DNA of 61,490 nucleotides from a virus (IMGVR_UViG_3300035665_000036:1-61490); one strand, 5' to 3'; shown: positions 513 to 49,705, counted from the stretch's first letter. Made by a program: numbers and translations. The notes: a model not told the origin generated them from the sequence alone.

Positions 513-528
513 GGGTTAATTTAACGGG
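513..528 (-). promoter_or_regulatory. Class B phage promoter-like motif CCCGTTAAATTAACCC (copy 1)
   Basis: Exact 16-mer present 5 times, always at a gene boundary and in the same orientation. This copy lies between the MuF-RNAP stop and the scaffold gene. Confidence 0.8.
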
Positions 529-533
529 TTTCG

Positions 534-3500
534 TTAACCTACTCCGTACCATCCGTAATCATTTTTGAAATCTGAAGGAACTTCTTTTACAATGTCTTCT
601 TTCAAAAGAATATCAGACTCTTTAAGAACCTTTCCTCCGACAACAGACCTACCTGCAATCGGAATCAAACCGATGTCTATTGCTTCGTTCAGATACTGAT
701 CGTAAAGTTCTTGAGGTAAACCTCTTGCCCTCATCTCATCCAGAGTAGACACTATAACATTTCTGTCCAGTGTTTTTGCATAGATTTTTCTCAAAGCATT
801 TCTGGCATTCAACATATCAGCTGCATTTGCAAAGAAAGCGTCATGAATAGTGCTCGTGGGAATGTTATTTTCCCTTCCCCATAGATGAAAATTTTTAACA
901 ATTGTCGCGTCGTTAGAATGGTTCCCGTTAACTGCAAAGGCAGTACGCGCTCTTGTTGAATCGGCAATATCATTTATTTTACCGTCCTTATTCATCATCT
1001 CTTCCCACCAAGTTACTTCAGTTTTTTGAGGTACTTGCAATATATTGGTGGTCCACTCGCCTTGTTTATTCTTATAAAAAAGCCTTTCTTCAAATTGTTG
1101 TGTGAAATTTTGTTCGATCACTTTACCATCAAAATTAACCCAAGGAACGTTTGTCCATGATTTAGGCATTTTATTGGCACTCAGTAATTCCACTTCAAAC
1201 ACATCTTGCTCTTGAATAAACTTACCTTTTAGTAAATTAGAAGGTGTTGGCAATGCAGGTCTTAAGAAAGACAATTTAAAGTATTTACCACCTGTACGTC
1301 TTGTTTCCGGTGTTGCTGCACCATAAAGAATGTCATGTAGGTTACTATTTGGCTTATAAAAACTTAAGCGTTTCAAAGCTTTCTCACTTAAAGATTCTCC
1401 AGCTTTTAAGCCTAAGATTCTGCTAAGTGTATCTGGCAGAACATACCCTTTCTTTTTACTGCCAAACACTTTTTCTCTCACAATTGCATTCCAATCAAAA
1501 GCAGCTGTGGATGGCTTTGCATTATTCAGATAGTCTTCTGCAAGTCTGCCAAAGAACTTTGTAAAGTCTTTTAAGATAGGTACTTGCTCTCTCAGATGTT
1601 CGCTCATTATTTTTGCAATATCTTTAAAATCACCTGGAGTGACAATCCTTTCATAATTTAGAGAAAGTTTCTCCACAAGATCTTTTGTCTTAGGCTCCAA
1701 GAAATAAAGCTGATCTAAAATCTCATCACCTGGATCTAAACCTTTATTAAAGATGTCTTTAACGTTTTCTCTAAGTGCTCTTAGTTCATCTGCAGTCACT
1801 TGATCAAACTTATCGTACCTTGCAATACGAGCTGATATCTCATTGAGTACAGTTTCACGATCTGAAGCCTTAACAACTAACGTATCCTTATCTTTGCCAA
1901 GGACTTTTGATAATTTACCTTCTACATTAAGTGTGCCAGTCCTTTCACCAGCACCATAGAACGTAACCATATTTTGCGCCTTGGCAGCCTTACGCAAATC
2001 TTTCTCTGTAAGGCCTAGCTTTTCGTTGATTACTTTGAATCGCGGATCGTTGAATGTTGAAGCTGCAATCTCATCATACAATCTTCGCTTTTGATTTGTA
2101 GGTACTACATTTGACAACTCAGCAAGCTGTTTGTTACGGGTGGTCAACGCGATAATTTGGGCACCAGATGATGACGCATCTTGTTCGAGAGCTAAGGATA
2201 TTTTGTAATTACGAAGTTTTTCTAAGTTCTGAGAAGAATATGGATCAACACTTGTGATCTTTTTCCAGTTCCACCCATATAACTCTGCCTCATTGTTTCC
2301 ATAAGTGTATTTAAAAGGTTTTTCAATAGCAGCGCCAACCTGAATTTCACCGAGCAGCTCTACCTCCACAGGCTCCGTTACCCATTTTTCGTTTGTAATA
2401 TCTACATCAGGTACTTGAGTCTTTGTAGGATTTGTGAATTTAGTATCACTAGGTGCTTTATACACGTATAGCTTTTTACCTTTTAAATTCATTGACATTG
2501 CCTTTAATGCTGAATCAATATCACCTGCGAATGAAATTCTTTTTGTTGTATTATCTTCAAATCCTTGCTTAGTTAAAAAGTTAGAAGGTATACGGGGTGT
2601 GAATTTTGTATCTGTAAGTGGTACTGTGCTTATATGAAACAATTCGCCTCTGTCTGGAAAATTGCCTGCAGTCTTTTTGAGATAGTTATCAATCTTAGCT
2701 TGCTCTATGGCAAACCTGAAAAATTTACCCAGTTCTTCACCTTCAATCATATGTGTTATGTCAGCTTCAAGGATCGCTCTGATATCTGCAGGCTTCTTTG
2801 ATAACATCAAATTACCAATTCTGACAATTTCAGGTCTCCACTTTTCAGCAACCTTTTGTCTTCCAGTGATTGTGAGTGAATTATATTTACCTTCAAACTC
2901 ATCACTGAGACCACCTAAGAAAGCACCTATTTGATCTTGGAAATCTTTGAATTCTTCTGGACTGAAATTCTTTGCTTCTGCTGTATTGAGGAACGGTCTA
3001 AACGTCTCTCCAGATTGTGGTCCGATAAGACCTCTGTCATATATCCTTGCTCGATGATCGATAAAAGGATGATTTGAAAAAGAGCGTCCATTAGCTCGTA
3101 ACCACTGCATAGCTTTAAAGCGCTCATAAGCATCACCACGAGATGCGATATACTTTCTGTACTCATTACGCTCATCATAGAACTGAGCTTTTCCTCGATC
3201 ATCTTTGAAGTAGAGTAATTTATCAATGAAATCATAAAAGTCTTCATCCACTTTGTATTTTGTCTTAGATGCCCATGTCAACGCATCCACCATATTCTTG
3301 TCAATAAACTCTTCAGGAAATTCGCTGAAGCTTGAAGATGAAGTGATTGGAATTCTTGTGTCTTCCAAACCCAATATGCCTCTATCCATCCAGTAAGTTT
3401 TATAACCTTCTCTAAATAATAATCGATTATCATCTCTTGTTACGCTTACACGTAAGCCTAAATCTACTTTACGGTTTAGTCGGGAGTACTCTTGTATACG

Positions 3501-5630: not shown

Positions 5631-5642
5631 TTATTTATCTCT

Positions 5643-5906
5643 TTATTTTAAAAATCCAACAGAACCAATTCTGCGAGTTGCTGTACCTAGTTTATAACCT
5701 GTTTTACCCATTCCAAGTTTTTCATACTTAGCTGTTGCAGTTGCTCTGTGCTCTGGTCTGTGCAAAACACCGGAAATAAAACCACCGGTATTGGCTAACA
5801 TAATTTTTCTTACGCGCTTCCCGCTAGCATTTTTGTTACCTTTTAATGCAGTGGATAATTTTGCATTTTTAATACTTTTACCATGACCTGTGAATCTTGT
5901 GTTCAT
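5643..5906 (-). CDS. Small, very basic hypothetical protein
   Basis: 87-aa K/R/G-rich ORF with an RBS, translationally coupled to the upstream ORF. Confidence 0.6.
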   Translation of the reverse strand: MNTRFTGHGKSIKNAKLSTALKGNKNASGKRVRKIMLANTGGFISGVLHRPEHRATATAKYEKLGMGKTGYKLGTATRRIGSVGFLK

Positions 5907-6046
5907 TTCTTTTTCCTCTTTTGTTTAGTATGTTTAGCCACATCTAACGCAATTGCAATTGCCTGTTTTTGTGGTTTACCTACTTTCATCTCGGTAGAAA
6001 TATTCTCAGAGACAGTTTTCTTTGAATAACCTTTCTTAAGGGGCAT
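5903..6046 (-). CDS. Small basic phage protein, 47 aa (MPLKKGYSKKTVSENISTEMKVGKPQKQAIAIAL...), below the ORF-track cutoff
   Basis: My translation. It overlaps the portal stop and has an ATGA overlap with the next gene. It resembles small MPLKKG..KQA.AIAL proteins of phage head modules. Confidence 0.75.
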   Translation of the reverse strand: MPLKKGYSKKTVSENISTEMKVGKPQKQAIAIALDVAKHTKQKRKKK

Positions 6047-7610
6047 TATTTGCTCCTATTGCGTTTGCATTTTCTGCATTCTGATCTGTTGGCATCAACA
6101 ATTTATCGGCAGTTATCTCTTGAATAGCTTCCTCATCATTGTAATCAGGTGACACCAAATCATTTTGCTTAAGTAAAACCAACCAAACAGATCTCGGCAA
6201 TAAGCCTTGTTGATACCATTCGGTTGCCAATCGTAACCAATCAGCTCCAATTGGAACAGGGTTGAAATCTGTGGACAATGAAAACTCTATTTCAGAAACT
6301 CTTAATTGCAAGTCATAACGCCAATTCACCATAAACACAATTACTTGTGCCATGATATTACTCACTTTATTATTCAAGGTACCCAACTGCGCTGTCTGAG
6401 CTGCATTTCTGATTTCCAATGCAACGCCTGATTGTTCAGTTTCAGGACTTAACATTCGGATACCCAGTTTAGCCATCTCTTCAATACTGGAAGCAATTGC
6501 TCTGTCCATGTCTTGAAGTGCTGCTGTTGGAGTTTCCAAGACCTTGGCATCATCACCTTGTCTCAAACGCAGCCATGTACCTAAACCACCACTCACAATT
6601 TCATCAAATTCTTCGTCAGTCATGTCTGAAATAATCACTGGTGTATAGGTTGCAGCGCCATAAAGTAAATGATTACGTCTGCTGATTTTGTTGTATAGAC
6701 TCACTTCTTTGTCAATAATGGCGGATAACATTGGTTCGACTAAGTCTATTGAACCATTTAGGGGCCAAGCTGGTATTATATTAATTGGCTCCCCATTTGC
6801 CAAAATATTACTGAAAGTATCAATCAAATCAAATTTAATTGCATTATTTGCAATTTCAACATTTTGCTTAGTTCCTCCGATTACAGGAACACTGGTGGTA
6901 TTCGAAGATCTTTGGAATTTTCTTATCTGATATTTACTTTCAACAAGTTCATGGACGTATACAGTGTCTTTGAATGTTGGATGAAACTCATTCTCATCAT
7001 AAGATTCTTCAAACACTCTGACAATTACCCTGTCCAAAATTGCCTTGCCATACTGATTCTCGCTAACTCTCCAGTTCACAACCTGTTCAGCTTTTCTGAG
7101 CACTGGATATGGTTTAAAGTTTAACAATTCTTCTTTTGTGTATGATTCTGCATTTTCCACAACAGGATAATCCACAAAAACCCATGCCCTAGATGTTTGC
7201 ACTTCTTCCCAAAGAGCTGCATCTAAAAATGCAGCCAAAGGAGAATCATCCTTGCCAAATTCGTTTATGATCCAATCATAAGCTTCTTCAGGAATGCCAT
7301 CAGGTAACTCTAATAAAGGCTTCTTTCTGAGCAATCCACCAATAATCATTTTTGCAAATTGTGCAGTGATACCTGGTAATTCAGCTTCAGCTTTGTAAAA
7401 TTTGTATTGAGCTTGACTCATACTTGGTGAAAACGGTATCAAAAGATTCTTGAATGTTAATACATCAATATTCGCATCAAAGTCTTTTACATACTGTTCA
7501 CCACTGCACACAGCTCTGCATTTTTGCCATAAAGGGCTCAATGACTCATAAGCTGCATTTGGATCTGCGACTGTTTTAACAGCCGATTGTGCTGCATTTG
7601 TTACTGCCAT
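6036..7610 (-). CDS. Portal protein (DUF4055-like)
   Basis: 524 aa, located between terL and MuF. The motifs QYKFYKAEAELPG, SRAWVFVDYP and EQSGVALEIR are typical of this portal type. Confidence 0.85.
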   Translation of the reverse strand: MAVTNAAQSAVKTVADPNAAYESLSPLWQKCRAVCSGEQYVKDFDANIDVLTFKNLLIPFSPSMSQAQYKFYKAEAELPGITAQFAKMIIGGLLRKKPLLELPDGIPEEAYDWIINEFGKDDSPLAAFLDAALWEEVQTSRAWVFVDYPVVENAESYTKEELLNFKPYPVLRKAEQVVNWRVSENQYGKAILDRVIVRVFEESYDENEFHPTFKDTVYVHELVESKYQIRKFQRSSNTTSVPVIGGTKQNVEIANNAIKFDLIDTFSNILANGEPINIIPAWPLNGSIDLVEPMLSAIIDKEVSLYNKISRRNHLLYGAATYTPVIISDMTDEEFDEIVSGGLGTWLRLRQGDDAKVLETPTAALQDMDRAIASSIEEMAKLGIRMLSPETEQSGVALEIRNAAQTAQLGTLNNKVSNIMAQVIVFMVNWRYDLQLRVSEIEFSLSTDFNPVPIGADWLRLATEWYQQGLLPRSVWLVLLKQNDLVSPDYNDEEAIQEITADKLLMPTDQNAENANAIGANNAP

Positions 7611-7633
7611 TAGTCCTCCATTTCATTGCGCAA

Positions 7634-8291: not shown

Positions 8292-8299
8292 AATTATCC

Positions 8300-10545: not shown

Positions 10546-10549
10546 CAGG

Positions 10550-16499: not shown

Positions 16500-16584
16500 A
16501 CAAATGTACCTTTAATTTCATCAACTTAACAAAAAGCACATCCATTAGTACAAAGTGTCCTTCAAGAACACTAACGATTGTAAT

Positions 16585-16704
16585 TCAATCTCTCTTTTGT
16601 TTGTTTTAAACAATTAACACTGATTAAAGTGATTTATCATTAACAAACTCAATCTCTCTTTTGTTTGTTTTAAACAATTAACACTGATTAAAGTGATTTA
16701 TCAT
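16585..16704. repeat. Tandem direct repeat: two identical 56-nt copies, period 64
   Basis: TCAATCTCTCTTTTGTTTGTTTTAAACAATTAACACTGATTAAAGTGATTTATCAT at 16585-16640 and 16649-16704. Confidence 0.95.
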
Positions 16705-16849
16705 CAACAATTAACAAACTCAATCAAAAGAGATTAAAGAATCTGATGTACTAAAAGATATACTCTAACTAATCTGTAACCCAGGCAAAGCCTAAGTATA
16801 CCCTTATTGTTCTATCTTTTCTCGGTGTTCCATTTCGGAGAAACACTTT

Positions 16850-16865
16850 GGGTTAATTTAACGGG
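16850..16865 (-). promoter_or_regulatory. Class B promoter-like motif (copy 2), head of the packaging/late module
   Basis: Exact 16-mer. Confidence 0.8.
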
Positions 16866-16894
16866 TTTGTCATAACCTGAATTGCCTTTCAGAT

Positions 16895-16950
16895 AAAAAA
16901 AAAAAAAAATCTTCCCTCATGACCACCATAAAGGCAGCCACGAGGGAAGA
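16895..16950 (-). terminator. Intrinsic terminator with a 15-nt U tract
   Basis: Stem TCTTCCCTC/GAGGGAAGA next to A15 on the plus strand. Confidence 0.75.
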
Positions 16951-23023: not shown

Positions 23024-23039
23024 GGGTTAATTTAACGGG
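23024..23039 (-). promoter_or_regulatory. Class B promoter-like motif (copy 3)
   Basis: Exact 16-mer overlapping the stop codon of 23032..23388. Confidence 0.8.
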
Positions 23040-27805: not shown

Positions 27806-28247
27806 ATCCCAAGATGCCTGTTGCTCTCCGAGCCAAGTCGAAGAAATTATTTCTCACAAAATCACTGCAGTTGGTCACATCGGTGCCGCTTGCAACATTC
27901 GCAATTGCGACCAAACCATCCATGACTGCTTTGTTAGATCCAATATCTACCTGCAAGAAGGCAATATCTGCGTTCAAAGACTCCTTCACGGCTTCCGACT
28001 GTAAAAAGCTCTGTTGCACCGCAGTCAACATGAACAACAATGGTTCGCCTATATTATCTTGGATGACTGTGTTGATATATTCCAAGTCAGCTCTCGCCTC
28101 ATCATTGTCAAAACGATTTTCAACTGATGCTTCTTGGATTTCAACCGTATTTTCTTCGACCAATACTTCTTGATTATTTTCCATTTTTATTCCTTTATTT
28201 AATTGGGCAAATGCCGCTTGCACACTCATCATTTGACTCGTAATCAA
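27786..28247 (-). CDS. Hypothetical acidic protein (true start probably MENNQE)
   Basis: An AAGGA RBS precedes the internal ATG. Confidence 0.55.
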   Translation of the reverse strand: MITSQMMSVQAAFAQLNKGIKMENNQEVLVEENTVEIQEASVENRFDNDEARADLEYINTVIQDNIGEPLLFMLTAVQQSFLQSEAVKESLNADIAFLQVDIGSNKAVMDGLVAIANVASGTDVTNCSDFVRNNFFDLARRATGILGFVEKPQ

Positions 28248-32772: not shown

Positions 32773-32773
32773 T

Positions 32774-33244
32774 TTATATTTCTCCTTTGAAATCGCCCCA
32801 AGACAGGGCTTTGTTTAAACGTTCTTTATGTCTTTCGGTTATATTTTCACTCACATTCCAAGAAATCTTTTCGATACGTTTGTTGTACCATTCCTTCTTG
32901 GTCGGTGCTTCCACGTGGCACAAAGACCATGTTTCTGCGTATGAAAGTGCTCCTTTGGCTTTGTATTGCTCTATGCAAATGAACTCAAAATCAGTCTTTG
33001 GTCTTTCGGCCAACATTTCTGAAATTGAATTACTTGAAGAGCAATATGTTTTCCAATTTGATTCTTGACCTTTATTTAACTTACCTGAGCCTTTGAAAAG
33101 TTTCTTTCCAAGATAGAAGCGTTTCATAAAGGGATCTCGAATCACATATATGAAACCCGAATAAGCATCTTTGTCCATCGGTTCTTCAAAATGCCAATGT
33201 CCATTTTTACTCAACGGTTTCACGATTACTTTAGGAATCACCAT
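32774..33244 (-). CDS. GIY-YIG-family endonuclease
   Basis: GFIYVI...FYLGKK...WKTYCSSS...E...WYN. Confidence 0.75.
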   Translation of the reverse strand: MVIPKVIVKPLSKNGHWHFEEPMDKDAYSGFIYVIRDPFMKRFYLGKKLFKGSGKLNKGQESNWKTYCSSSNSISEMLAERPKTDFEFICIEQYKAKGALSYAETWSLCHVEAPTKKEWYNKRIEKISWNVSENITERHKERLNKALSWGDFKGEI

Positions 33245-38087: not shown

Positions 38088-38103
38088 GGGTTAATTTAAC
38101 GGG
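38088..38103 (-). promoter_or_regulatory. Class B promoter-like motif (copy 4), head of the replication module
   Basis: Exact 16-mer. Here it extends to AATTAACCCTCA, identical to the upstream half of the T3 promoter. Confidence 0.85.
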
Positions 38104-39991: not shown

Positions 39992-40000
39992 TATTAACTC

Positions 40001-43000
40001 CTATGCAAAACAATATTCTGAGTCTAAAATTAAATTTAAGTCGAGCGTACCTATTTCTACATTACTAATATCTCCTTGTATATCATCCATAAGACTATTG
40101 AGAGGATCATTTGCATATAACTCCACAAATGTCTCTCTCACCAATTTAAACAGCTTCGGCATATCAGCTAACAAACATCCAAATGAATCATGTATGGTTG
40201 TCATTGGAAAATCAGCTCTGTATACCGTCAATGCCAAGTGTGCTGCATCCAAGCTGTGAATACAATTTGGACTCGCCCCTTGAGCTTGCTTACCTTTTGA
40301 TGGCACATGATCTTCAATGAAACACACTGCCAGTTGAAGCGTATTTTCAAAGTAACCTGAGCTGTTTCTTAAACCCAATGGCGGTCCATATTGCACCCAG
40401 ATTTTCTTCACTTTTCCCTCTGTATAGTGTTGTACCACAGGAAAATTGGTTATTGGAACAGTCCAAGAAAGAAATCTTTCTTCTGCTTCCGCCTTTTTGC
40501 CTGCTTCTTCAAATACAGTTAAGAGCTGCATAGGGCGTTCCAAGGCCGCTTTGCAAGTCTCCAGCACCATTCTGCCCATATAAGAACCCCACTTATGTTC
40601 CATAAATAGTAGAAGATCTATACCATGTTTTCTTGCATCATCAATTTGTTGTTGACCAAGCCCATATGCAGTTCCGCCATACGGCAACGTCATTACATTT
40701 CTTTTGACAACTTTTCTACGTTGTTTTACGTCTTTAACTCTGCACCAATATATAGGTGCAATTTTAGGTATTATATCTATGTTTTTGTCTCTAAATTCAC
40801 GAATACGCTCTAAAAGTTCTTTTCTTTGTTCACTTTTAAATTCAGCATTGTAAATATCCTTTTTCAATTGTATTAATGTATCTATTACAGTTTCGGCTTC
40901 TCCAATTTCTTTTTTGGTGAATTTTGATTTTTCAATTTCCAGCTTATCCCACACATAATCTGCAACATATTTATATAGATCTCCAGGCAACTCAAGAGGT
41001 ACTAAATTAACGTGCGGTGCAGTTATTTCATCTTTTGTAAGTGCAGATAAATGTTGACTACCGTTGTTCGACAATATCTTCGATAGTGGTCGTTATGCAC
41101 TATCCGCTTGGCGGCTAAATATGTGTCCAACTCTTGCCTACTCGTATTGAGTAAATACAACCACAAGAAACTCCAAAAAGCTTGCCTATTTCAGTATTTG
41201 AATAGCCATTTTTTATGAGTTTTTTTATTTCAATTACATCATCATTGGTCAGTTTTACAGCCTTTCCTGCCTTTCTGTTTTCACCGATACTGTGTAAACC
41301 TGTTTTAAAAGCATGCCTGTGATTGTCACCAACCGACATCCATTCTAAATTAGAAACCTCGTTGTTGGTTTTTATACCGTCAATATGATTAACTGTCTCT
41401 AATTTATCGGGATTTTCTAAAAATGCTTCCGCAACAAGTCTGTGTACTTTTCTTGTCAGTGCCTTACCTTTTACGTGAAGTGTCACCAACTCATAGCCAT
41501 AGCGATCAAGCCTTGTTCTCATTATCAAATTTCTTTTATTGCTTATAACTATTCCATCATAAGTGATAGAATACTCTCCGTTTGTATTTTCTATTTCTTT
41601 TATCATTTTAATTACCTTGTTTAAATAAAAATCAGCCGCCAAGCTGCTGCAAATTACTCTGCAGATGAGACTATATCTTGCATAATAAATATGCCCCTGT
41701 GTTTCGAGCCACTCGGCCCTACATAATAGTCGTTACACCTAAGAACGTCTGAGGACGTTATTTTGGCTCGGTATTGTCCTTTGCAGGAGTTTCACCGAAT
41801 TTACAGGATTTAACGACGGCTCTTACAAACCGTCAACAAAGCACTCTAAACTTGAAGAATACCCAAAATCATTGAATGGATCTAGATGGAATCCATGCTT
41901 TATTTGCCACTCTCTCAATTTTTTAAGCTCATTACATGCCGCAAGGAATTGCCAAGGTTTATCTGCTTTCATCCAGCCTTGATTCACCTTGGGTTGCATT
42001 GCGTAATCAAGTAATATGTCTTCATTATCTGTGGACCATAAATACCTGTCCTTGAGTGGAATCTTATCCGTTTTTGCCCCGTCTTCTCTTCCAGATGCTC
42101 CTGCCCAATTTGAAGCAATACTGACCATAAGCCAAAAGAAACCCTCCTTTCCAATCTCCTTTTTGTCTTCTCTCAGCAAAAGACCTTTTGCTAAGTCAGT
42201 ACCTTGTTCATGAAAATAAGCTGTTGCTGGATATCTTCTACCACGGAAGTCATAATAATAACGCATTTGTTCAGAAAATTTCGCTAATATTTTCTCGTTA
42301 ATTAACATGTGACCAATTTCTTCCTGTTCGTATACAGTTAATTGTGCCAGGATGCACACCGAATAATAATGCAATTTCTTTATTGGAAAAACCTGCAGAG
42401 AACATTGCTTTTATATCTCTCACGGACTCTTCATTTAATTTAGAATTTATTGCCGTGGTACCCTTCACCATCAATCCCAGATCTTTTGCATGTCTGACAT
42501 TTTCTAGTTGTGTGCACCATTCTAAATTATCAATATTATTATTCTTTTTGTTTGCATCTAAGTGATTTACTTTTGGCAATTTAAGCGGATTTGGTATAAA
42601 AACTAATGCCACTAATCTGTGAACCATTTCTTTCTTACTTTTACCGTTATAACTCAGTGGCACTTGTAAATAACCTAGACCATTGTCATTTTGTTTCAAG
42701 ATACGTCCGGCTTTTATATATTCCCCGCCAAAAGTACTTTTGACAATCCTATCTTTACTCTTTACATTGCCATAAGAAGAAACTTCATAATACTCATCAA
42801 AATCTTTCCAGATTTCCATAATAATCTCCGACTATTTTAAGTTAATTAACAGCTGTATATTACTATACAGTTCAGACTATATCATCTTGGCATCCGCCAA
42901 GCTCCGCGCTTCCACTAAGCTATTAGTGTACTCTACTAAGATTAACAAACATCCGTCTGTTCTTTTCGATAGTCGTTGCACCTTTTGAAGGCTCAGGATT

Positions 43001-43795
43001 GTCCTAAGGATGTTTCCTGAATTCACGGAGTTTACTACCACCGAAATATTAATGGTAGAAAGTTTTCCCAATGAACCTTTTCGCAATATTTCCGATGGCT
43101 TTTGCTTCTCTCAGCTTAGTGGCTTTTGCTTCAGGATTTTGAGAATCCCATATATCAGAAAATGCTTCTGTTTTATTTCGAAGCGCCCAACTGTACATGT
43201 GAAACACGTCATTGTTAACACGCCAACCCATTGCTTGAGATCTATTTATGCACTCAAATATGATCGGGTGTGTTTCTGGAGTGACTTTTGACATCACTTC
43301 CTTGCTACCTGTCTTAATCATAACAACACCGGATTCATGCCTCAAATTTGTCCAAGGCGCATACGGTGTTAATGACGGTAATTTTTCCACGGCATTTACT
43401 TCGACTTTCTCCCACAATTCGCATATGATTTCATCATTTAGCACTTGAATGATGTACGCTGCATGTTTGCCATTTGACTTGCCCAAGAGTACTGTGAGCA
43501 CTTCAAGCTCTTCAAATGAGTAAAGTAAGAATGCCCCTGTCTTTGCAGCCAAGGAAGAGTCTTTTTTCATCTTGTATTTGCTTCTGACTCCATGTCCAAT
43601 TGCAGAAATAACTTCGGTTAGATAAATGGTGTTCTTTTTTGAACCCTTTTTTGACCTTGTATATAGATAGACGATTGATACAAGAACATCGAAGTAGTCT
43701 TCCACTTCAAGCTCCTTCAAGTATTTCAAAGGATTTTGATTTGATATTTCATTTGCCAATCTGGATTTCAATGATGATATTAATATTTGTCTCAT
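40001..43795 (-). CDS. T7-family single-subunit RNA polymerase (RNAP2); exons 43795-43052, 42263-41829 and 41071-40001, 749 aa spliced
   Basis: Spliced motifs FYH^RYYYDFRGRRY...EQGTDLAKGLL and motif A FVDG^SNNGSQH. Also KPWQFLAAC, motif B RKVVKRNVMTLPYG, PNCIHSLDA and motif C TIHDSFG. Confidence 0.93.
41072..41828 (-). mobile_element. Group I intron 2 of RNAP2, inserted in motif A
   Basis: Exon GACGGU pairs with IGS GCCGUC (U.G). Core elements AAATTCGGTGAAA..GACAATACCGAGCC, GTAACGACTA and AAGATATAGTCT are present, with a terminal G at 41072. Confidence 0.92.
41115..41606 (-). CDS. Intron-encoded HNH homing endonuclease with a C-terminal HTH-like domain
   Basis: VHRLVAEAF...VNHIDGIKTNN.VSNLEW...N. 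An AAGGT RBS precedes ATG 41606. Confidence 0.92.
   Translation of the reverse strand: MIKEIENTNGEYSITYDGIVISNKRNLIMRTRLDRYGYELVTLHVKGKALTRKVHRLVAEAFLENPDKLETVNHIDGIKTNNEVSNLEWMSVGDNHRHAFKTGLHSIGENRKAGKAVKLTNDDVIEIKKLIKNGYSNTEIGKLFGVSCGCIYSIRVGKSWTHI
42264..43051 (-). mobile_element. Group I intron 1 of RNAP2
   Basis: Exon CUACCAU pairs with IGS GUGGUAG (U.G), and a P10 pairing UAAUA/UAUUA is possible. Core elements GAATTCAGGAAA..GACAATCCTGAGCC, GTGCAACGACTA and GATATAGTCTG are present, with a terminal G at 42264. Confidence 0.92.
42298..42819 (-). CDS. Intron-encoded NUMOD4-HNH homing endonuclease
   Basis: EIWKD...YEVSSYGNVKS (NUMOD4) and VHRLVA..F...VNHLDANKKNN..NLEW. Confidence 0.93.
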   Translation of the reverse strand: MEIWKDFDEYYEVSSYGNVKSKDRIVKSTFGGEYIKAGRILKQNDNGLGYLQVPLSYNGKSKKEMVHRLVALVFIPNPLKLPKVNHLDANKKNNNIDNLEWCTQLENVRHAKDLGLMVKGTTAINSKLNEESVRDIKAMFSAGFSNKEIALLFGVHPGTINCIRTGRNWSHVN

Positions 43796-44036
43796 AATGA
43801 ACTAACCATTTTCAGTATTATTAATAAACATGCAAAAATTACAAATATCGCCAGAAATTTTATCATAATTGCAAGCATTGCAATTAATAAAATCATCTTA
43901 GTAATTGCGATATTGTTTCTTTTTGTCATGTCAGCCTCTTTGGTTTTAAATTAAATTCTCATATAGTATAATTCCCGTATTTTTAGTTTGTTTGATTTTA
44001 AATCTCAACGGATCAAGGTAGTTTGCACAGAGCAGT

Positions 44037-44090
44037 AAAAAAAAAAAAAAAAAAAAAAAAAAGTAAGCGCATGGGGCCCCGAAGGGCCCC
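44037..44090 (-). terminator. Terminator-like element: UUCG hairpin and a 26-nt U tract
   Basis: Minus strand reads GGGGCCC-TTCG-GGGCCCC, a 10-nt spacer, then T26. Confidence 0.7.
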
Positions 44091-44096
44091 AAAAAT

Positions 44097-45028
44097 TTAA
44101 TTTTCTCTCTTATAAAACACAATATTAACAACAAAACTAAATACAAAAAGTATTTTAATTATTATTACATATTCTGCAAATATAACTATAGTACTCCCTA
44201 GCCTTGGAAAGAGCATTACCATCAAGCCTATTACGCAGCCACATACAATTAGACTTTTTGCCAATGCATCAGCAATACGATTCATTGCTCTTCTCCCGAT
44301 AGTCTACTGTTAATTAATTCTTTTTCAAGAAAATCAATATAGTCTAAATATTGAGAATTCTCCTTTTCAACTGCTTTAATTTTCTTTTTATTCTTGACGT
44401 GAATTGCATACGCTGCTCCGATAACACCGCCAAGAATCATACCAGCACCGCCAGGTGTTGCCGCAAAAAGAAGTGCTTTTGTCATCCCAGCACCAAGTGC
44501 GGATGATTTCAAACCTTCTACTATAACTGTACTCATTTCTCACCTCCATTTGCTTTGTCTCGCTCTTTTTGATAAAAAGCCCAACCTACGCTAACCAGGC
44601 TCACTACTACAAGAACTACACCAGCTGGTGTAGTTGCCATTAATACAGCTCTTGTTGCTATGACCGCTATTGCTGATGACGTCAACATATCTTTGTGCAT
44701 TTGTTTCATTGTATTAACCCCAAATTGTTTCGATCGTAAATAAAATAATTACGAACCACTGAATTGCAATTGTGATTCTTTGTGTTTTGATGATTTCCAA
44801 AGGTCTGTTTTCAACCTCAAGCTTTTCTTCAACCATTCTTCGAAATGCATTGTCGCGCATTTCTCTTTCTTTTGCAAGTCTTTTTTGCTGAAAACTTTTT
44901 ACGTCATTCATAACTGCGCTCATGTCAATCTCCTTAAGCAAACAATTCAAGTTCAACAATTTTGACGCTGTCAAATGTCCAACCCATTTTAGCCAAAATT
45001 TCTGACTGCATAATTTCTTCCTGTTCAC
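44097..45028 (-). CDS. Cluster of small early membrane proteins (44097-44285, 44282-44536, an unlisted ORF ending near 44533, and 44714 to about 44923-45028)
   Basis: Each has a hydrophobic segment. Two share an A(A/T)TP(G/A)G motif. Confidence 0.55.
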
Positions 45029-45126
45029 TCATTGCGATCACTTCCATAGTTTCGCCATTTTGATTTTTGTAAATGTGATAATATTGTTTCATTTTCTTTC
45101 CTCTAAAAAATTATAGTTATTGATGT

Positions 45127-45153
45127 TATCATATAAGATACCATATTTTCCGC
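45127..45153 (-). promoter_or_regulatory. Class A (early) promoter-like motif, copy 1
   Basis: GCGGAAAATATGGTATCTTATATGATA, intergenic. Three copies fit GCGnAAAnTnnnGTATCTTATATGATA. Confidence 0.75.
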
Positions 45154-45154
45154 A

Positions 45155-45457
45155 TCAAATTCCACGTGAATCTATGATGACTTGCTGTTTTCTTTTACGT
45201 ATTTTGCGTGTGTATGTCACTGTGTTTGCTCCAGGGACATTTTCAGTGACTAAATGTACAGGTTCGACAGATCTGTTTACATACCCATTTTCCATTTGCA
45301 TTTTATTTGCAACCAACTCAGTTTGAATACTTTTCAATCTATTACTTATAACGCCGTTTGCTGCCACTACATTTTTTCTATCCATACTACCATCTAAAAG
45401 ACCTTGTAAAAGTGCTTCTAAAACTGCATCTATATCTTTTGTTGTTTTTAAACTCAT
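45155..45457 (-). CDS. Hypothetical protein
   Basis: ORF track with a GGAG RBS. Confidence 0.6.
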   Translation of the reverse strand: MSLKTTKDIDAVLEALLQGLLDGSMDRKNVVAANGVISNRLKSIQTELVANKMQMENGYVNRSVEPVHLVTENVPGANTVTYTRKIRKRKQQVIIDSRGI

Positions 45458-45468
45458 TATACTTCTCC

Positions 45469-46164
45469 TTATTTAACTTCTCTTAATGCTCTTTGTAATC
45501 TCAAATTAGTGCGGTACATATTTATCCAATCTTTTGTAATACTTTTTCTTCTTAATCCTATTCTCTTAAATAGACGCAATTCTACAATTCTCTTACTCAC
45601 ATATTCGTCTGTTAATGTATCTCTTGCTTTTTCATAATGATTTTTACTATTTTTTGCTTGCCTCTCCATATCTTTTTCTTTGAAATCAATATTACTGGCT
45701 CGTTTATTTTTTCTAGCTTGCCAAGCATTTCTTGCATGTGCTTTTACTTTTTCAGGGTTATTGAGACGCCATTCTTTTTGGCATGATTTACAAATATTTG
45801 AAATATTAAACGACATACCAGGTGCTTTTGAAAAACATTTTATAGGTAATTCTTCATTACACTTTATACATGTCATCATTTTGGGAAGTTCTGAATATTC
45901 CACTTGTTTGCGTCGTTCATATCTCTCCTTTAAATATACTTTCATTTTTTCTTTATATTCAGGAGTCTCTCTTACATCATAATATTTTTTAGCATTTTCT
46001 CTTTTTTGCTGTTTCTTTTCTTCAGTGAGTGTTTGATAGCCATATCTTTCCTTACGGCATATTTTGCACATATAGTCAAACCCATCTTTACTTCGTTTGT
46101 TTTTTGTAAAATAAACTACTTCTTTCTCTTTATTACATGTACTGCATATTTTTGTTTCACACAT
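45469..46164 (-). CDS. Basic protein with two Cys4 zinc-ribbon repeats
   Basis: CSTC...F.KN..SKDG...CKIC and CIKC...F.K....CKSC. No nuclease motif seen. Confidence 0.7.
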   Translation of the reverse strand: MCETKICSTCNKEKEVVYFTKNKRSKDGFDYMCKICRKERYGYQTLTEEKKQQKRENAKKYYDVRETPEYKEKMKVYLKERYERRKQVEYSELPKMMTCIKCNEELPIKCFSKAPGMSFNISNICKSCQKEWRLNNPEKVKAHARNAWQARKNKRASNIDFKEKDMERQAKNSKNHYEKARDTLTDEYVSKRIVELRLFKRIGLRRKSITKDWINMYRTNLRLQRALREVK

Positions 46165-46193
46165 AATCTTTTCCTTTCAATTATAGTTATATT

Positions 46194-46220
46194 GAGCAGT
46201 TTAAAGACATACTCAGGTCT
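46194..46220 (-). ncRNA. Candidate H-type pseudoknot RNA element (copy 2)
   Basis: AGAC-CUGAGUAU-GUCU-UUAAAC-UGCUC, about 30 nt upstream of ATG 46164. Confidence 0.5.
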
Positions 46221-46330
46221 ATTACTATCTTTGTGGCCAATTGTTTGGATACACAGTCCACCCTCTTTTGTGCATCTCTGTTGCAACAAAAGGTGAGTTG
46301 GTGTATGTGACCAAATTGGCCTTTCTTAAT

Positions 46331-46996
46331 CTATACTTGCTCATTTACTTTACCCCTCAATTTTGCCAATTTTGCCATCCTTTCATTATACTTTTCAGTC
46401 AATCTTCTCTCCTCACGAACAATTAACTCAAGATTACGTTGTTTTGCCAAGGCCAGTAACTCCTCTTTATTGTTGGATATTTCACAGCAAAACATATTAG
46501 TTGTTTGAAGGTAGTACGGATGATCAAGACCTTGGCGGTAACCATCATCACATAGGTCATAAAGAAAATCTTCCAAGTCATCTTCCATCATTTCAAAACC
46601 CTCCTTTAATTACGATTGCAGGTTTACTCATTTGATCACCCTTGCGTGATATTTGAAATACTTATCTATCATGCAATCTTTTCCAAAAAGTTCCCTAAAA
46701 AGCACTGCTTCAGGACATTCGCAATGATGTGAAGAATTCATCGGAATAGTGAACTTAAATCCGATTACATCTTTGTAATCGTACCAAGCAGCTTTTATAG
46801 AGAACTTACCCTTGACACTTTTGCGACAACGCCTTTCTGAAATAATCATTACCTTTTGCGTATTAGCGAAATCAACAAAACCTCTAATTCTTTCGACAAT
46901 ATGTACAAGAATCAAGGCTTCCGCAGGATTTTTATTTATATTACCAAGAAGCTGTGTAGCTTCTTCTGTAAGTTCAATTGTGTATTCTATTTTCAT
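46331..46996 (-). CDS. Two hypothetical proteins (46331-46591, 46628-46996)
   Basis: ORF track with GGAGG RBSs. Confidence 0.55.
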
Positions 46997-47229
46997 TTTA
47001 AAAGTCCTCCTTTAATTGTCAATGCAGGTTTATGGTATTGAATATTCCCGAACTTATCCGCTTGGTATGTCTTACCGTGTTTAATCACTAGGTGTGGTTT
47101 ATTGTATTCCACATTACCAAACTTATCTGTCTGGTAAAGTTTCATTGTTGGTTGTTGCGCTTTGGCCTCCGGATTGAAAGCCACGATTGCTGAAACAACG
47201 GTTAAGGTTATTAAGATTTTTTTGAACAT
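46993..47229 (-). CDS. Small exported protein with two YQ.DK(F/Y)GN..Y.KP repeats
   Basis: Signal peptide ending in AKA. Paralog of 47923..48153. Confidence 0.75.
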   Translation of the reverse strand: MFKKILITLTVVSAIVAFNPEAKAQQPTMKLYQTDKFGNVEYNKPHLVIKHGKTYQADKFGNIQYHKPALTIKGGLLK

Positions 47230-47311
47230 TTTACTTCTCCTTTTTGATTTCTTGACATCTGCATAATATTATGAACGTGTCGCACAGTTCACATTTAGTT
47301 ATTTTCTCTTT

Positions 47312-47338
47312 TATCATATAAGATACTCAATTTTCCGC
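47312..47338 (-). promoter_or_regulatory. Class A (early) promoter-like motif, copy 2
   Basis: GCGGAAAATTGAGTATCTTATATGATA. Confidence 0.75.
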
Positions 47339-47557
47339 GTTTTCCTTCACCACAAACATTACATTCTCGTTATCATGACGCTCATACTCTTTACACAATA
47401 CACGTTCACAAATTTGAAATGATTTAATAAAGACACACCCAGTACAGGAACCATCAGAATTCCCGGCAACCTCTATGATCTCCCATGTGATATCATTCAT
47501 TTTCTTCGACCTCTCTGTATTTGTATATGACGTTTCTACCGTCGGTTCTTTCATCAT
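47327..47557 (-). CDS. Small Cys-rich protein (CTGCVF...C...C)
   Basis: ORF track. Resembles the repeat unit of 27047..27805. Confidence 0.5.
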   Translation of the reverse strand: MMKEPTVETSYTNTERSKKMNDITWEIIEVAGNSDGSCTGCVFIKSFQICERVLCKEYERHDNENVMFVVKENAEN

Positions 47558-47652
47558 CTGTGCATTTCATGATCCTGCACATCACTGGTTGGTTCAGAAA
47601 TATACAACCATCACAGCCAAGTTTATCAGTTTCAACTTCGATTATTTCTCTT

Positions 47653-47910
47653 TCACACATTTTCAATCTCCATTAAAGATTCTTTCCAATCTCCATTAAA
47701 CACACAATCGCCTAGATACTCCATGCAAGGTGTTGCTGATTGCCAGCATCCGTCAGATATCCAGGGTTCGTCTTGATAAACATACACACTACCGTCTTCG
47801 TCAGTCGCAATATACTGATTGGTTGACAATACCTGAAGAGATGTCCCGAAATACTCAATGGTATTGAGTACTAAATCACTTAGATTGAACTTGGTTATTT
47901 CGAATGTCAT
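47653..47910 (-). CDS. IATDEDG...GDWKESL family protein (paralog 1)
   Basis: Shares motifs with the 48225-48410 region and 48815-49069. Confidence 0.7.
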   Translation of the reverse strand: MTFEITKFNLSDLVLNTIEYFGTSLQVLSTNQYIATDEDGSVYVYQDEPWISDGCWQSATPCMEYLGDCVFNGDWKESLMEIENV

Positions 47911-47922
47911 GATTGGCCTCTG

Positions 47923-48153
47923 TTATCTGCGCTTGATGGAATAATGCGGTCTGTGGTATAAGATGTTGCCATATTTATCTGCTTGATACACTCTGTCACC
48001 TCTTAATTTTAAACTCGGTTTGTGGTACAAAATATTCCCATATTTATCCCTTTGGTATACTGTGTTGGGATCATCAGGCATTCTGTGATGCTTATAACCA
48101 CAACCTTGCAACAACAACAATACTGCAATGAAAAATAACGTATTAACTTTCAT
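47923..48153 (-). CDS. Small lipoprotein with two YQ.DKYGNILYH(K/R)P repeats
   Basis: Lipobox LLQGC after a hydrophobic core. Confidence 0.75.
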   Translation of the reverse strand: MKVNTLFFIAVLLLLQGCGYKHHRMPDDPNTVYQRDKYGNILYHKPSLKLRGDRVYQADKYGNILYHRPHYSIKRR

Positions 48154-48410
48154 TTTTAATCTCCATCAAAGACTCTTTCCAGTCACCATCAAAAGTGGCA
48201 TTTCCCAAACAATTGACATCAGGTTCAACACAACCCCGCCCCCCAATCCGTGACACCTAACCAGGGCTTATATGAGTAGGCATAGACATAACCATCTTCG
48301 TCTGTTGCAATCCAGTGGTGTTCACCCGATATTTGTAGAATTATCCCAAAATAATTGACAGATCGGAAAAGTTGTTGCTCTGCATCAAAATTGATTATCT
48401 TAAAGGTCAT
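48143..48410 (-). pseudogene. IATDEDG family paralog 2, frameshifted in a G run near 48233-48244
   Basis: The shifted frame continues GCVEPDVNCLGNATFDGDWKESLMEIKNES. Confidence 0.65.
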
Positions 48411-48848
48411 TTATTTCTCCTTTGTGAAACTTAATAAAGCGGCTCTGTGTTCTAACATAGCCTCTTTTGTTAAATGTATTAACCCATTACCTAAGAAACG
48501 ACAATCCATACTGCTGCCGTTCCATATATACGAGAAAACACCTTCTACAGGATTAACGAGATCCACAAAATAGTATCGCTCTCCGATTGATAAAGTTTCT
48601 TTCACTGGAACTGGTACATCATGCCCATTTATTTGGATGAATTCTGATTTTAATACCCAGAAATTGCCATGCAGAGGTCCGTTGTAATTATATATATCAC
48701 CATCCATATCTTTACATTGTAGCGTACCGTTCTTCAAGCTTAACTCTCCACGATTACCCATGATAAATGTACGTCCAGCCAATAAAGCTTCCATCACTTC
48801 TTTTTGGTTCATTTTTAGTCCTCCAATATCATTAGTGAGTCTCTCCAA
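48411..48848 (-). CDS. Hypothetical protein (IQINGHDVPVP...GLIHLTKEA..EH..ALL domain)
   Basis: ORF track. The true start is probably MNQKEV. Confidence 0.65.
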   Translation of the reverse strand: MERLTNDIGGLKMNQKEVMEALLAGRTFIMGNRGELSLKNGTLQCKDMDGDIYNYNGPLHGNFWVLKSEFIQINGHDVPVPVKETLSIGERYYFVDLVNPVEGVFSYIWNGSSMDCRFLGNGLIHLTKEAMLEHRAALLSFTKEK

Positions 48849-49069
48849 TCACCTTTATACTCACAACAGCCGATATGCTCACATGTGTCCAGCTCTGAAG
48901 CACCTTCTGTCCAATAATCAAATTGTAAGTCTAAATCTGGTTGAGTTTTAAAGGTGTATATCATTCCATTTCTATCAACTGCGATGAATGCTGCCTCCAT
49001 TTCCACTAAAATTTTTTTACCGCAATACTCAATAAGCTTACGATCTAGTTCAACTATTTCAAATGACAT
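48815..49069 (-). CDS. IA(T/V)D..G...GDW(K/R).SL family paralog 3
   Basis: An AGGAG RBS precedes MSFEIV. Confidence 0.65.
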   Translation of the reverse strand: MSFEIVELDRKLIEYCGKKILVEMEAAFIAVDRNGMIYTFKTQPDLDLQFDYWTEGASELDTCEHIGCCEYKGDWRDSLMILED

Positions 49070-49105
49070 ATCATTTCTCCTTTTTGCAAAATAAAAGGCT
49101 ACCAT

Positions 49106-49528
49106 TTAGGTAGCCGTATAGAACTTGTGGTGCTTGTAAACACCTAAATACACCAATTTCTTGGTCCACTTAGGTTTCACTTTTAAATTATGAAAATGAG
49201 TTGCTGTCTTAAACTTGGGTGGTATTTTAAATTTACCCTTGTATAAGTCCATCACAGACACTTTCAAAATTTCATTTAGATCTTTAGGTATCTTAGTAGA
49301 TACATTATAAGCAAACTGTTCAGGTTTACTCACAACTTTGCAGATCGTTTTCTCTTCGTGAGATCTATTAATTACCACGTTTGCAATTAACATCATCCCC
49401 AAAAGGTCTTCTCCTTTTGCTTCATTAAATGATGTTGTTGTCAAACATAATAAATCCCTCTTATTAATGTTAGCTTTTGTTGAAAAACTTATCAACAACA
49501 AACTGACCAATAATAATACTCTTATCAT
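49106..49528 (-). CDS. SleB-like cell wall hydrolase (Hydrolase_2) with a signal peptide
   Basis: CLTTTSFNEAKGE...IANVVINR...TICKVV..PEQF...ATHFH...PKW...HKFY. Confidence 0.85.
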   Translation of the reverse strand: MIRVLLLVSLLLISFSTKANINKRDLLCLTTTSFNEAKGEDLLGMMLIANVVINRSHEEKTICKVVSKPEQFAYNVSTKIPKDLNEILKVSVMDLYKGKFKIPPKFKTATHFHNLKVKPKWTKKLVYLGVYKHHKFYTAT

Positions 49529-49559
49529 AGTTTGCCTCCGTAAGATATCTTTTATCTGA

Positions 49560-49586
49560 TATCATATAAGATACCCAAATTTACGC
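49560..49586 (-). promoter_or_regulatory. Class A (early) promoter-like motif, copy 3
   Basis: GCGTAAATTTGGGTATCTTATATGATA at the head of the early region. Confidence 0.75.
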
Positions 49587-49689
49587 ACTTTGAGTATCCT
49601 TTAATTGGTTCTAGATTTCGTGATAAATAAAGAACCAACTAAAATAATTTTAATCTTCAGTTTCCTTCAGTGCACTGGAAGAACACTTA

Positions 49690-49705
49690 GGGTTAATTTA
49701 ACGGG
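49690..49705 (-). promoter_or_regulatory. Class B promoter-like motif (copy 5)
   Basis: Exact 16-mer. Shares the downstream AAGTGTT with copy 2. Confidence 0.8.

Follow-up and report, generated by a model that had tools for sequence, protein, structure and literature searches.

The phage contig IMGVR_UViG_3300035665_000036, analysed over its whole length of 61,490 bp (the window), encodes two divergent RNA polymerases (RNAPs) of the T7 family and carries two unrelated repeated motifs, class A and class B, that are distributed by gene module. One polymerase forms the last part of a MuF head protein (MuF-RNAP); the other (RNAP2) is encoded by a gene with two group I introns. A first-pass annotation had proposed that injected MuF-RNAP reads class A and that RNAP2, made only after two splicing events, then reads class B, including the operon for new MuF-RNAP. 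The observations behind this proposal (both motifs, both polymerases, both introns and the terminators) were all recovered. Of its interpretation, the promoter-like character of the motifs, the confinement of class A, the place of class B at the heads of modules, the introns and the assignment of enzymes to motifs were upheld to the degrees given below, and the likeness to phage N4 survived only in outline.

The window is a single contig comprising the whole assembly, and every long open reading frame (ORF) lies on the minus strand. A scaffold-like ORF that leaves at position 1 reads on in frame over the contig ends; the contig therefore appears to be a closed or permuted complete genome, and its 61.5 kb look like those of a complete phage. 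The genome was contained in lake-water metagenome runs (share 0.99 in X1, which may be the source, and 0.83 in X2), and a megablast search of 6 kb against isolated phages returned no match. For G001, which IMG/VR flags as having a "direct terminal repeat", this flag did not locate the ends of the genome close to the early region.

Read along the minus strand, the layout begins with a class B site (49705), followed by a class A site (49574) and the small early genes, among which the other two class A sites lie (47326 and 45141). A hairpin with a run of 26 T (T26; 44090-44037), a 45-aa hydrophobic ORF and RNAP2 (43795-40001) come next, and the class B site at 38103 precedes the replication genes: nucleotide kinase, DNA polymerase, exonuclease, primase/helicase, ribonucleotide reductase (RNR), ligase and DHH phosphoesterase. 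The class B site at 23039 is followed by genes of unknown function and by a hairpin with a run of 15 T (T15; 16950-16895). From the class B site at 16865 the order runs through terminase, fibre-like protein, portal and MuF-RNAP (5630-534), and the class B site at 528 is followed by scaffold, capsid and tail genes, which continue over the contig ends down to 49778. This partition into modules had been given by the first-pass annotation and agreed with PHROGs. Coordinates of the principal features are collected in Table 1.

Table 1. Polymerase genes, introns, motif sites and hairpin-plus-T elements of the window, counted from its first nucleotide.
Feature	Position	Strand	Remark
Class B	49690-49705	-	Heads early region; class A site 1 follows 116 nt downstream
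Class A site 1	49560-49574; block 49550-49591	-	31 nt upstream of first early gene (ATG 49528)
Class A site 2	47312-47326; block 47302-47343	-	Exact match
Class A site 3	45127-45141; block 45117-45158	-	Exact match
Putative terminator/attenuator	44037-44090	-	GC hairpin, 10-nt spacer, T26; between early genes and the 45-aa hydrophobic ORF (43792-43929)
RNAP2 exon 1	43052-43795	-	Colinear with DSS3_VP1 gp080 residues 29-263
Group I intron 1, 788 nt	42264-43051	-	HNH/NUMOD4 ORF 42298-42819; RF00028 61.2 bits
RNAP2 exon 2	41829-42263	-	Pfam RNA_pol profile positions 1-77
Group I intron 2, 757 nt	41072-41828	-	HNH ORF 41115-41642; in motif A (VDG/S); RF00028 51.9 bits
RNAP2 exon 3	40001-41071	-	Specificity loop, motif C IHDSFG, C-terminus ...EYCFA
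Class B	38088-38103	-	Ahead of replication module
Class B	23024-23039	-	Ahead of unknown-gene module (22914-17531)
Intrinsic-type terminator	16895-16950	-	18-bp hairpin, T15 immediately after, 30 nt before class B
Class B	16850-16865	-	Ahead of packaging and structural operon (terminase, fibre-like protein, portal, MuF-RNAP)
MuF-RNAP fusion, 1698 aa	534-5630	-	Pfam Phage_Mu_F and RNA_pol; between portal (6036-7610) and scaffold-like gene
MuF-RNAP polymerase half (last 939 aa)	537-3353	-	Single-subunit RNAP fold; loop region ~1032-1139
Class B	513-528	-	6 nt past MuF-RNAP stop codon; precedes genes for scaffold, capsid and tail

Pfam RNA_pol (PF00940; cut-off 22 bits) was exceeded by both polymerases, and both peptides that the first-pass annotation had quoted as divergent specificity-loop regions were located, at 1115-1032 in MuF-RNAP and at 40435-40325 in RNAP2 exon 3 (both minus strand). 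In MuF-RNAP, residues 141-247 matched Phage_Mu_F (PF04233; 52.3 bits, cut-off 29.6), which places the protein in the MuF/SPP1 gp7 family, and residues 1540-1636 matched RNA_pol (41.7 bits); the portal gene (DUF4055) lies directly upstream. An AlphaFold (AF2) model of the last 939 aa (pLDDT 72.5, pTM 0.69) had T7 and mitochondrial RNAPs as its top Foldseek matches (E 2e-9, 900-990 columns, 10-12% identity, TM 0.35-0.49), and motifs A (EQDASSSGAQ), B (K..NMVxFYGAG) and C (HDAFF) were invariant in 26 sequences. A phmmer search of the polymerase half against the PDB returned no match. A profile of the 26 relatives reached T7 RNAP at only E ~0.01, over the DxRGR and HD regions and with T7 motif C aligned; its top match, the PH1932 regulator (E 0.001), looks spurious. 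Judged from the modelled fold, matched over 900-990 columns, and from the invariant motifs A, B and C, MuF-RNAP is predicted to carry a complete, very divergent single-subunit RNAP, with the right-hand fold and a promoter-binding domain on its N-terminal side. Its MuF part, the location of its gene between those for portal and scaffold, and its membership of a late operon are indirect signs that it may be packaged in the capsid and injected.

An insertion of about 165 aa (residues ~980-1146; ~2193-2693, minus strand) lies between conserved blocks of MuF-RNAP, in a stretch of the 939-aa segment where no invariant column falls between K220 and A388. It forms a beta-rich domain in the model and lies outside the family consensus.

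RNAP2 matched RNA_pol in two pieces (151.6 and 52.1 bits), and exon 3 found T7 RNAP (1aro) by phmmer at E 1.8e-24, with the specificity loop aligned and the equivalents of R746 and Q758 retained. Its IHDSFG aligns with T7 H811/D812, and joining of the exons restores motif A (VDGS..GSQH). The joined exons form an open frame of 749 aa with no stop codon, which aligned without gaps within 15 aa of both junctions to uninterrupted orthologues of 743-744 aa, and the three pieces are colinear with the uninterrupted RNAP of DSS3_VP1. At both junctions the exon ends in U and the intron in G, as in group I introns. Both introns scored above the RF00028 gathering score of 50, matched only as single stretches (256 nt and 221 nt); Rfam searches over the whole window and over 5.4 kb found no intron, and short-stretch searches alone detected both. 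The sequence supports the earlier statement that two introns must be spliced for RNAP2 to be made, and RNAP2 is, by its motifs, plainly a full T7-like enzyme with a specificity loop.

The class B motif (CCCGTTAAATTAACCC) occurred five times in the window, always as an exact match, always on the minus strand and at each of the five positions at which it had been reported, including the head of the operon that encodes MuF-RNAP. No further site appeared when up to three mismatches were allowed, and five matches were reached in none of 100 shuffles (mean 0.31). The consensus is gA.CCCGTT-NNN-TTAACCCt, in which the central triplet varies even inside one genome, and among the relatives' sites compared no element downstream of class B was kept at a fixed distance. 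That the early region is itself headed by class B (49690) had been underplayed.

The sites at 49690 and 16850 share a longer 33-nt form (49677-49709 and 16837-16869; …CCC[TA]AAGTGTT[CT][CT]TCC). A C-rich box, for example AAAGCGGTCCCCC, comes after the class B site at the head of the early region in relatives, or after the first site where two stand in tandem about 114 nt apart; long form and box together make a possible class B subclass with a conserved initial transcribed region. Two readings of class B were set aside. A likeness to the T3 promoter (AATTAACCCT) was dropped because the would-be -8 to -1 bases are not conserved, and a reading on the opposite strand (TTTAAC/GGGG) was judged unlikely because all sites would then fire antisense to every gene.

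The class A motif (GTATCTTATATGATA) had three exact matches, all on the minus strand and all at 45.1-49.6 kb, with no exact match elsewhere; its confinement to the early small-gene region upstream of RNAP2 was thus as the first-pass annotation had it. Up to three mismatches, 11 matches were found, a count reached in none of 100 shuffles, and the remaining eight were the motif's own near-palindromic reverse reads or weak matches. The conserved block spans 42 nt (repeat family D6), with the consensus tGCGgaAAa-N4-GTATCTTATATGAwA. Its arms are unequal: the left TATC is fixed and the right GATA drifts to GAAA or GAAG. Hairpin promoters of the N4 type were considered for class A and rejected on DNA folds, which at two of the three sites gave -0.5 and -2.8 kcal/mol, no better than shuffles; at the third site a flanking hairpin is present and is not conserved. 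A second subfamily of relatives (G002, G003 and G004) has a single additional class A core beyond the early region, at some 620-700 nt on the upstream side of a class B site (such as the pair at 12029 and 12660 in G003).

T-runs of at least 7 nt on the gene strand occurred only twice in the genome, as T15 (16909-16895) and T26 (44062-44037). Each follows a hairpin and stands at a module boundary, as had been stated of long-U terminators, one before class B 16865 and the other between the early genes and RNAP2. The T26 element, about 240 nt before the RNAP2 start, had been passed over. Contigs of the DNA runs break at the T26 homopolymer (44027-44073), and its exact length is therefore uncertain. 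Just past T26, at 43960-44025 (minus strand), lie degenerate look-alikes of both motifs (CCGTTGAGATTTAAAA and ACGGGAATTATACTATATGAGA) that are not conserved in relatives; these may be chance matches or a weak private RNAP2 promoter.

Conservation in related phages

Among isolates, EBPR siphovirus 1 encodes a MuF-RNAP that is 58% identical to that of the window, and DSS3_VP1 and DSS3_PM1 of the Naomviridae carry both enzymes (MuF-RNAP ~30% and RNAP2 ~38% identity); the MuF-RNAP of DSS3_VP1 is gp108. Close relatives of the MuF-RNAP polymerase half are encoded by 123 IMG/VR stretches, a number that a profile search raised to at least 581, and RNAP2 at 60-100% identity was found at 21 loci. Both enzymes co-occurred in all of the large contigs tested (5 + 3) and in four of five contigs of the VP1 clade, the fifth being a fragment. 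A search with the VP1 RNAP for VP1-clade relatives returned VP1 itself only, and DSS3_PM1 is colinear with VP1 and gave no independent data. The literature searched held no account of a MuF-RNAP fusion or of either motif, although the supplements of the Naomiviridae paper and of PMC11880802, which gives promoter predictions for 1757 phage genomes, may list them; the main text of the Naomiviridae paper contains no mention of "RNA polymerase", "RNAP" or "MuF".

The exact class B 16-mer was present in at least 118 IMG/VR stretches, many with two or more copies. A comparable control 16-mer (the VP1 motif) gave six stray single matches outside VP1 in IMG/VR, in stretches without RNAP homologues. 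Orientation was counted on non-redundant sites outside the window, from loci located by protein and not by motif; all 74 class B sites and all 27 class A sites lay on the gene strand. Five genomes of 60-79 kb contained four to eight class B and two to five class A sites each, again all on the gene strand, and reversed-pattern controls gave none.

The positions of the sites were also conserved. At least two class A sites lay upstream of RNAP2 in each of the 12 loci with 5 kb or more of upstream sequence, and a class A core was found downstream of RNAP2 in one of 20 loci, as a coding look-alike. Class B occurred within 3 kb downstream of RNAP2 in 15 of 20 loci; it was found upstream of RNAP2 in 8 of 12, where it invariably preceded the first class A site. 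Just after the MuF-RNAP stop codon, class B was present in 40 of 78 loci, and EBPR siphovirus 1 has a variant class B after its MuF-RNAP gene as well. The common layout was class B, two to five class A sites, hairpin and long T-tract, RNAP2, and class B. Length, orientation and position at operon heads would suit T7-type promoters, whose conserved 17-23 nt or so stop immediately ahead of the start, and as far as sequence comparison goes both motifs fit oriented, conserved promoter-like elements rather than operators.

In most relatives, a hairpin, a pyrimidine-rich spacer and a run of 10-31 T occupy the place equivalent to the T26 element, in G006, G007 and G009 too, and thus in both clades. 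By a strict count, the T-run reached at least 9 nt in 7 of 12 loci, and shorter runs were present in others. EBPR siphovirus 1 has a long T-run before its variant class B ahead of the terminase gene. Neither class A nor class B had a conserved site in the interval from the T-tract to RNAP2 in relatives; because the T-tract precedes RNAP2 without a conserved promoter between them, RNAP2 expression seems to depend on read-through, which would delay or limit the switch.

The MuF-RNAP ORF of several relatives is cut exactly at motif B (restart TFYGAGERTG) or just before NHSNDA (L256, L314, L317 and L318; L313 and L315), and that of EBPR siphovirus 1 is split by the HNH gene gp48 (L001 25771-31144). 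Homing elements therefore appear to target catalytic motifs in both polymerases of the family.

Assignment of the motifs and the proposed transcription programme

The first-pass annotation had assigned enzymes to motifs from position and had proposed covariation of motifs with specificity loops as a check. That comparison was run, and three contrasts in sequence favoured MuF-RNAP with class A and RNAP2 with class B. The first was between the window clade and DSS3_VP1, whose class A motifs are alike (GGTATCTTATATGA vs GGCATCTATAATGA) and whose class B motifs are far apart (CCCGTTAAATTAACCC vs ATAGGGTGCGTTAAAG). Correspondingly, the RNAP2 specificity loops of the window and the VP1 clade share 14-23% identity and differ by a 12-aa indel (protein 38-40%), whereas the MuF-RNAP loops are colinear with 35% identity (protein 39-40%). 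Outside the early region and the RNAP gene, DSS3_VP1 has 13 strong same-strand copies of ATAGG..CGTTAAA/GAGGGG, and a 14th, weaker copy lies inside the early region at 38541. The VP1 motif resembles the Syn5 promoter, as does the left half of class B; the Syn5 promoter is given as ATTGGGCACCCGTAA followed by G in the account of its proof (PMC3950665). The early region of DSS3_VP1 starts with two copies of AAAAAGTGAGAAAA-N5-GGCATCTATAATGA, by sequence clearly the class A counterpart in VP1.

The second contrast lay within the VP1 clade. Its class A' core (GCATCTATAAT) was constant, with two copies in VP1, two in G006, three in G007 and four in G009, and in G006, G007 and G009 class A' is followed by the hairpin and T-run and then by RNAP2. 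The MuF loop was 71-79% identical within this clade, at or above the protein average, and the RNAP2 loop was 14-50% identical, below its own average of 52-64%. The third was a single odd genome, G011/L251, which has class A cores of the form G[TC]CATCT... in place of GGTATCT... Its MuF loop carries E747N, at a site where the 26 sequences of alignment A1 do not vary, together with VPW to VPS (shared with L323 and EBPR) and N749S at otherwise conserved positions. In the same genome class B shows no change, and when 14 RNAP2 sequences were compared its loop had no substitution of its own. From these covariations, MuF-RNAP probably reads class A and RNAP2 class B.

Several points weigh against this assignment and the programme built on it. 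The independent contrasts are few (two clades and one odd genome), and the class B type of G006 was not definable from the 27.5 kb examined. Class A is also T7-like (TATAT/G), so that RNAP2 could read it, and the 3' end of class B is CCC rather than AT-rich, which is unusual just upstream of a T7-type start. The equivalent of R746 pairs with C at -7 in 91% of T7-like pairs, as reported in PMC11880802; both motifs fit a register with C at -7, and the rule therefore does not discriminate between them. A class B site at the head of the early region would suit the reverse assignment as well, and class A transcripts may reach RNAP2 inefficiently past the hairpin and T-tract. A polyA metatranscriptome (X24, share 0.06) held contigs of a 95% relative over 45013-47233 and 48268-49162 only, without strand information; one of these RNA contigs crosses a class A site, no starts are visible and none covers RNAP2. 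No virion proteomics for relatives was found in the literature read.

A full two-polymerase programme can nonetheless be proposed with moderate confidence. MuF-RNAP would be made late, built into the capsid through its MuF part and brought into the cell with the DNA. As position and covariation suggest, it would start at class A, in the early region only, likely at the G of TATAT/GA. Most early transcripts would then meet the hairpin and T-tract, elements that are seen in the sequence and whose function is presumed. Read-through would yield the small membrane ORF and RNAP2, and removal of two self-splicing introns would give the 749-aa enzyme. RNAP2 would read class B, to judge from covariation and from the likeness to the Syn5 and DSS3_VP1 promoters, and would serve the replication module, the unknown module, the packaging operon with new MuF-RNAP and the capsid and tail operon. 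The class B site before the early region would let RNAP2 feed back on early expression and on its own synthesis. The phage may be able to do entirely without host RNA polymerase. The programme would be common to a large siphophage family that includes the Naomviridae; that widespread siphophages (at least 581 IMG/VR stretches) transcribe independently of the host by a MuF-borne RNAP, a T-tract attenuator, splicing in some members and an orthogonal RNAP2 is put forward tentatively.

Part of this programme could also be run by the host. As in T7, host sigma70 RNAP might read class A and make RNAP2, which would read class B, with MuF-RNAP pulling the DNA in, priming or serving as a backup. Class A does contain a -10-like TATGAT, which in the VP1 clade is a perfect TATAAT, TTGCGG lies 16 nt upstream in about half of the relatives, and the hairpin with its T-tract looks like a bacterial intrinsic terminator. 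The details of conservation point elsewhere, however: the best-kept upstream bases are GCG and AAA, not TTG, the hexamer is TATGAA in many relatives, with the critical last T lost, and the "spacer" GGTATCT is conserved like the hexamer, which is unexpected for sigma70, whose TTGACA-like -35 and TATAAT-like -10 elements stand 16-18 nt apart around a variable spacer. Phages rich in AT and phages rich in GC, with different hosts (the Ruegeria phage and the lake-water phages), share the class A core, this core covaries with the MuF-RNAP loop, and sigma70-like sites were not enriched (55 vs 60.1, 57 vs 57.3, 74 vs 68.6). Reading of the motifs by host sigma70, which the first-pass annotation had named as fatal to its proposal, thus lacks a signature in the motifs, and host initiation at class A is unlikely. 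The alternative that the motifs bind phage regulators, of which it had named repressor operators, is very improbable. If the motifs were operators, activator boxes or RNA-level elements rather than phage-polymerase promoters, their partly palindromic cores (GTTAA-A-TTAAC, and TATC-N6-GATA with 12 of 14 positions symmetric) would be accounted for. Their conservation is asymmetric, which argues against dimeric operators: class B positions 4-6 vary and the mirror positions do not, and the right arm of class A drifts while the left is fixed. The single orientation (74/74 and 27/27), the lack of a fixed -10 element downstream of class B and folds of RNA or DNA no better than shuffles in five of six stretches (four class A, one of them read on the opposite strand, and two class B) point the same way. 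No sigma factor or helix-turn-helix regulator was found among the seven larger early-region ORFs (at least 100 aa) scanned.

An exchange of roles between the two enzymes is a further alternative and is given rather little weight. Injected MuF-RNAP would first use the class B site that heads the early genes and afterwards the remaining class B sites, and RNAP2 would read class A and only boost the early genes. Such an arrangement would suit the placing of class B before the early region (in the window and in 8 of 12 relatives), the T7-like layout of class A (TATAT/G, C at -7) and the near-invariance of the class B core in the window clade, where MuF-RNAP is also highly conserved. All three covariation contrasts run opposite to it, and the left half of class B and the VP1 motif are like the promoter of Syn5, a bona fide T7-like enzyme, whereas MuF-RNAP is only remotely T7-like (profile E ~0.01). 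A second polymerase for the early genes alone would moreover be redundant, and with new MuF-RNAP encoded in the late operon, the few injected copies would have to transcribe the whole genome. The reading of class A by MuF-RNAP and of class B by RNAP2 is accordingly preferred.

Other features of the genome

The RNR gene lies in two pieces (29879-30937 and 28195-29067, minus strand) that match PHROG 367 at positions 26-369 and 397-697. An ORF for a LAGLIDADG endonuclease (29181-29804) sits between them (whole locus 28195-30937, minus strand), and the interruption is probably a further intron or an intein-like insertion. A free-standing GIY-YIG homing endonuclease of the SegE type (32774-33244, minus strand) lies between the primase/helicase and exonuclease genes. 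The genome thus holds at least four homing endonuclease genes of three families.

Within the 350-nt untranslated stretch from class B 16865 to the first gene of the packaging operon, two tandem 64-nt repeats (16582-16709) are 97% identical; they might represent a pac-like site, an origin or a leader RNA. The first early gene (49106-49528, minus strand) encodes a cell-wall hydrolase with a signal peptide (Pfam Hydrolase_2). This is an odd location for a lysis-type enzyme, and the early regions of DSS3_PM1 and DSS3_VP1 also hold a cell-wall hydrolase gene (L338 8848-9243). The early region further contains a pair of lipoprotein-like paralogues with internal YQxDKxGNxxYxKP repeats (46993-47229 and 47923-48153, minus strand) and a trio of paralogues ending in GDW[KR][ED]SLM (47653-47910, 48225-48410 and 48815-49105, minus strand).

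Relation to known systems

If the proposed programme holds, MuF-RNAP would represent a virion RNA polymerase of a new kind, no earlier one having entered as a MuF fusion by way of a long non-contractile tail, and a fourth independent solution by which a phage brings its own polymerase, beside N4, the jumbo phages and crAss/P23-45. Fusion of a T7-type enzyme to a common head protein would be its building principle. A function would be given to the largest "head morphogenesis" gene of the Naomviridae and of hundreds of uncultured freshwater and marine phages. The programme may also explain transcription of uracil-containing DNA in members with deoxyuridine (dU), a link to dU-DNA genomes that can be tested. 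Timing would gain further layers from the T-tract element and from the introns that interrupt catalytic motifs in the two polymerases, and the two compact, naturally orthogonal polymerase-promoter pairs, with many variants, would be of use in synthetic biology. An isolate, DSS3_VP1 on Ruegeria pomeroyi, makes the model directly testable.

In phage N4 the early promoters number three and are DNA hairpins with a 5-7-bp stem and a 3-nt loop, and the second polymerase consists of two subunits and has no promoter specificity by itself. The first-pass annotation had described the present system as N4 logic built from different parts. In outline this stood: as in N4 and the Schitoviridae, there are two T7-superfamily phage polymerases, one of them in a large, late-encoded virion protein (here a candidate one), and a few early promoters, putative here, upstream of the second-polymerase gene, according to the account in PMC4496689. 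The parts differ more than the phrase implies. The N4 virion enzyme is a 3500-aa podovirus ejection protein, in contrast to the candidate MuF fusion in a siphovirus-type genome, and it needs DNA hairpins, which class A does not form. RNAP2 is a single chain with its own specificity loop and many promoters, unlike the N4 RNAPII heterodimer, which needs cofactors. Transcription in N4 passes from virion RNAP to RNAPII to host RNAP, and no sign of a late return to host RNAP was seen here.

Thermus phage P23-45 has a comparable design. A virion RNAP fused to a structural protein reads one motif, which stands upstream of pre-early genes that include the second-RNAP gene, and a different motif is read by the second RNAP; ChIP and ONT-cappable-seq, with starts mapped, established this in the work described in PMC10770324. 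As described there, the P23-45 enzymes are two-barrel RNAPs akin to cellular ones, with a tape-measure fusion, rather than right-hand T7-type enzymes with a MuF fusion, and the middle and late genes of P23-45 use host RNAP. The phiKZ and AR9 phages likewise have a two-stage design independent of host RNAP, as set out in PMC5449584, and AR9 has uracil-containing DNA, as do Naomviridae relatives in the description of PMC8323127. Their virion and non-virion enzymes are multisubunit and two-barrel, and their genomes exceed 200 kb.

With T7, T3, SP6 and Syn5, RNAP2 shares the catalytic HD, the specificity loop and the FA C-terminus, and CCCGT(T)AA(A) is common to class B, the VP1 motif and the Syn5 promoter in its published form, with promoters at operon heads. 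Unlike in those phages, the RNAP2 gene has two introns and no recognisable sigma70 promoters before it, class B ends in TTAACCC and not in TATA/G, and a second, very divergent polymerase is present. MuF-RNAP in turn resembles SPP1 gp7 and other MuF proteins in its N-terminal MuF domain and in the place of its gene between portal and scaffold. PMC5512222 describes MuF proteins fused to effector domains that enter with the DNA, and its passages naming "RNA polymerase" do not mention a fusion to a T7-like RNAP; the cargo here differs from that of MuF polyvalent proteins in being a complete 940-aa polymerase.

A virion RNAP that leads to a second RNAP with a separate promoter class is thus already known from N4, phiKZ/AR9 and P23-45. 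The present case is set apart by the MuF partner, the setting in siphophages of 60-80 kb and the T7-type nature of both enzymes. It is also set apart by a full, promoter-specific RNAP2, which appears to serve both middle and late genes, and by the probable gating of that enzyme by a T-tract and introns.

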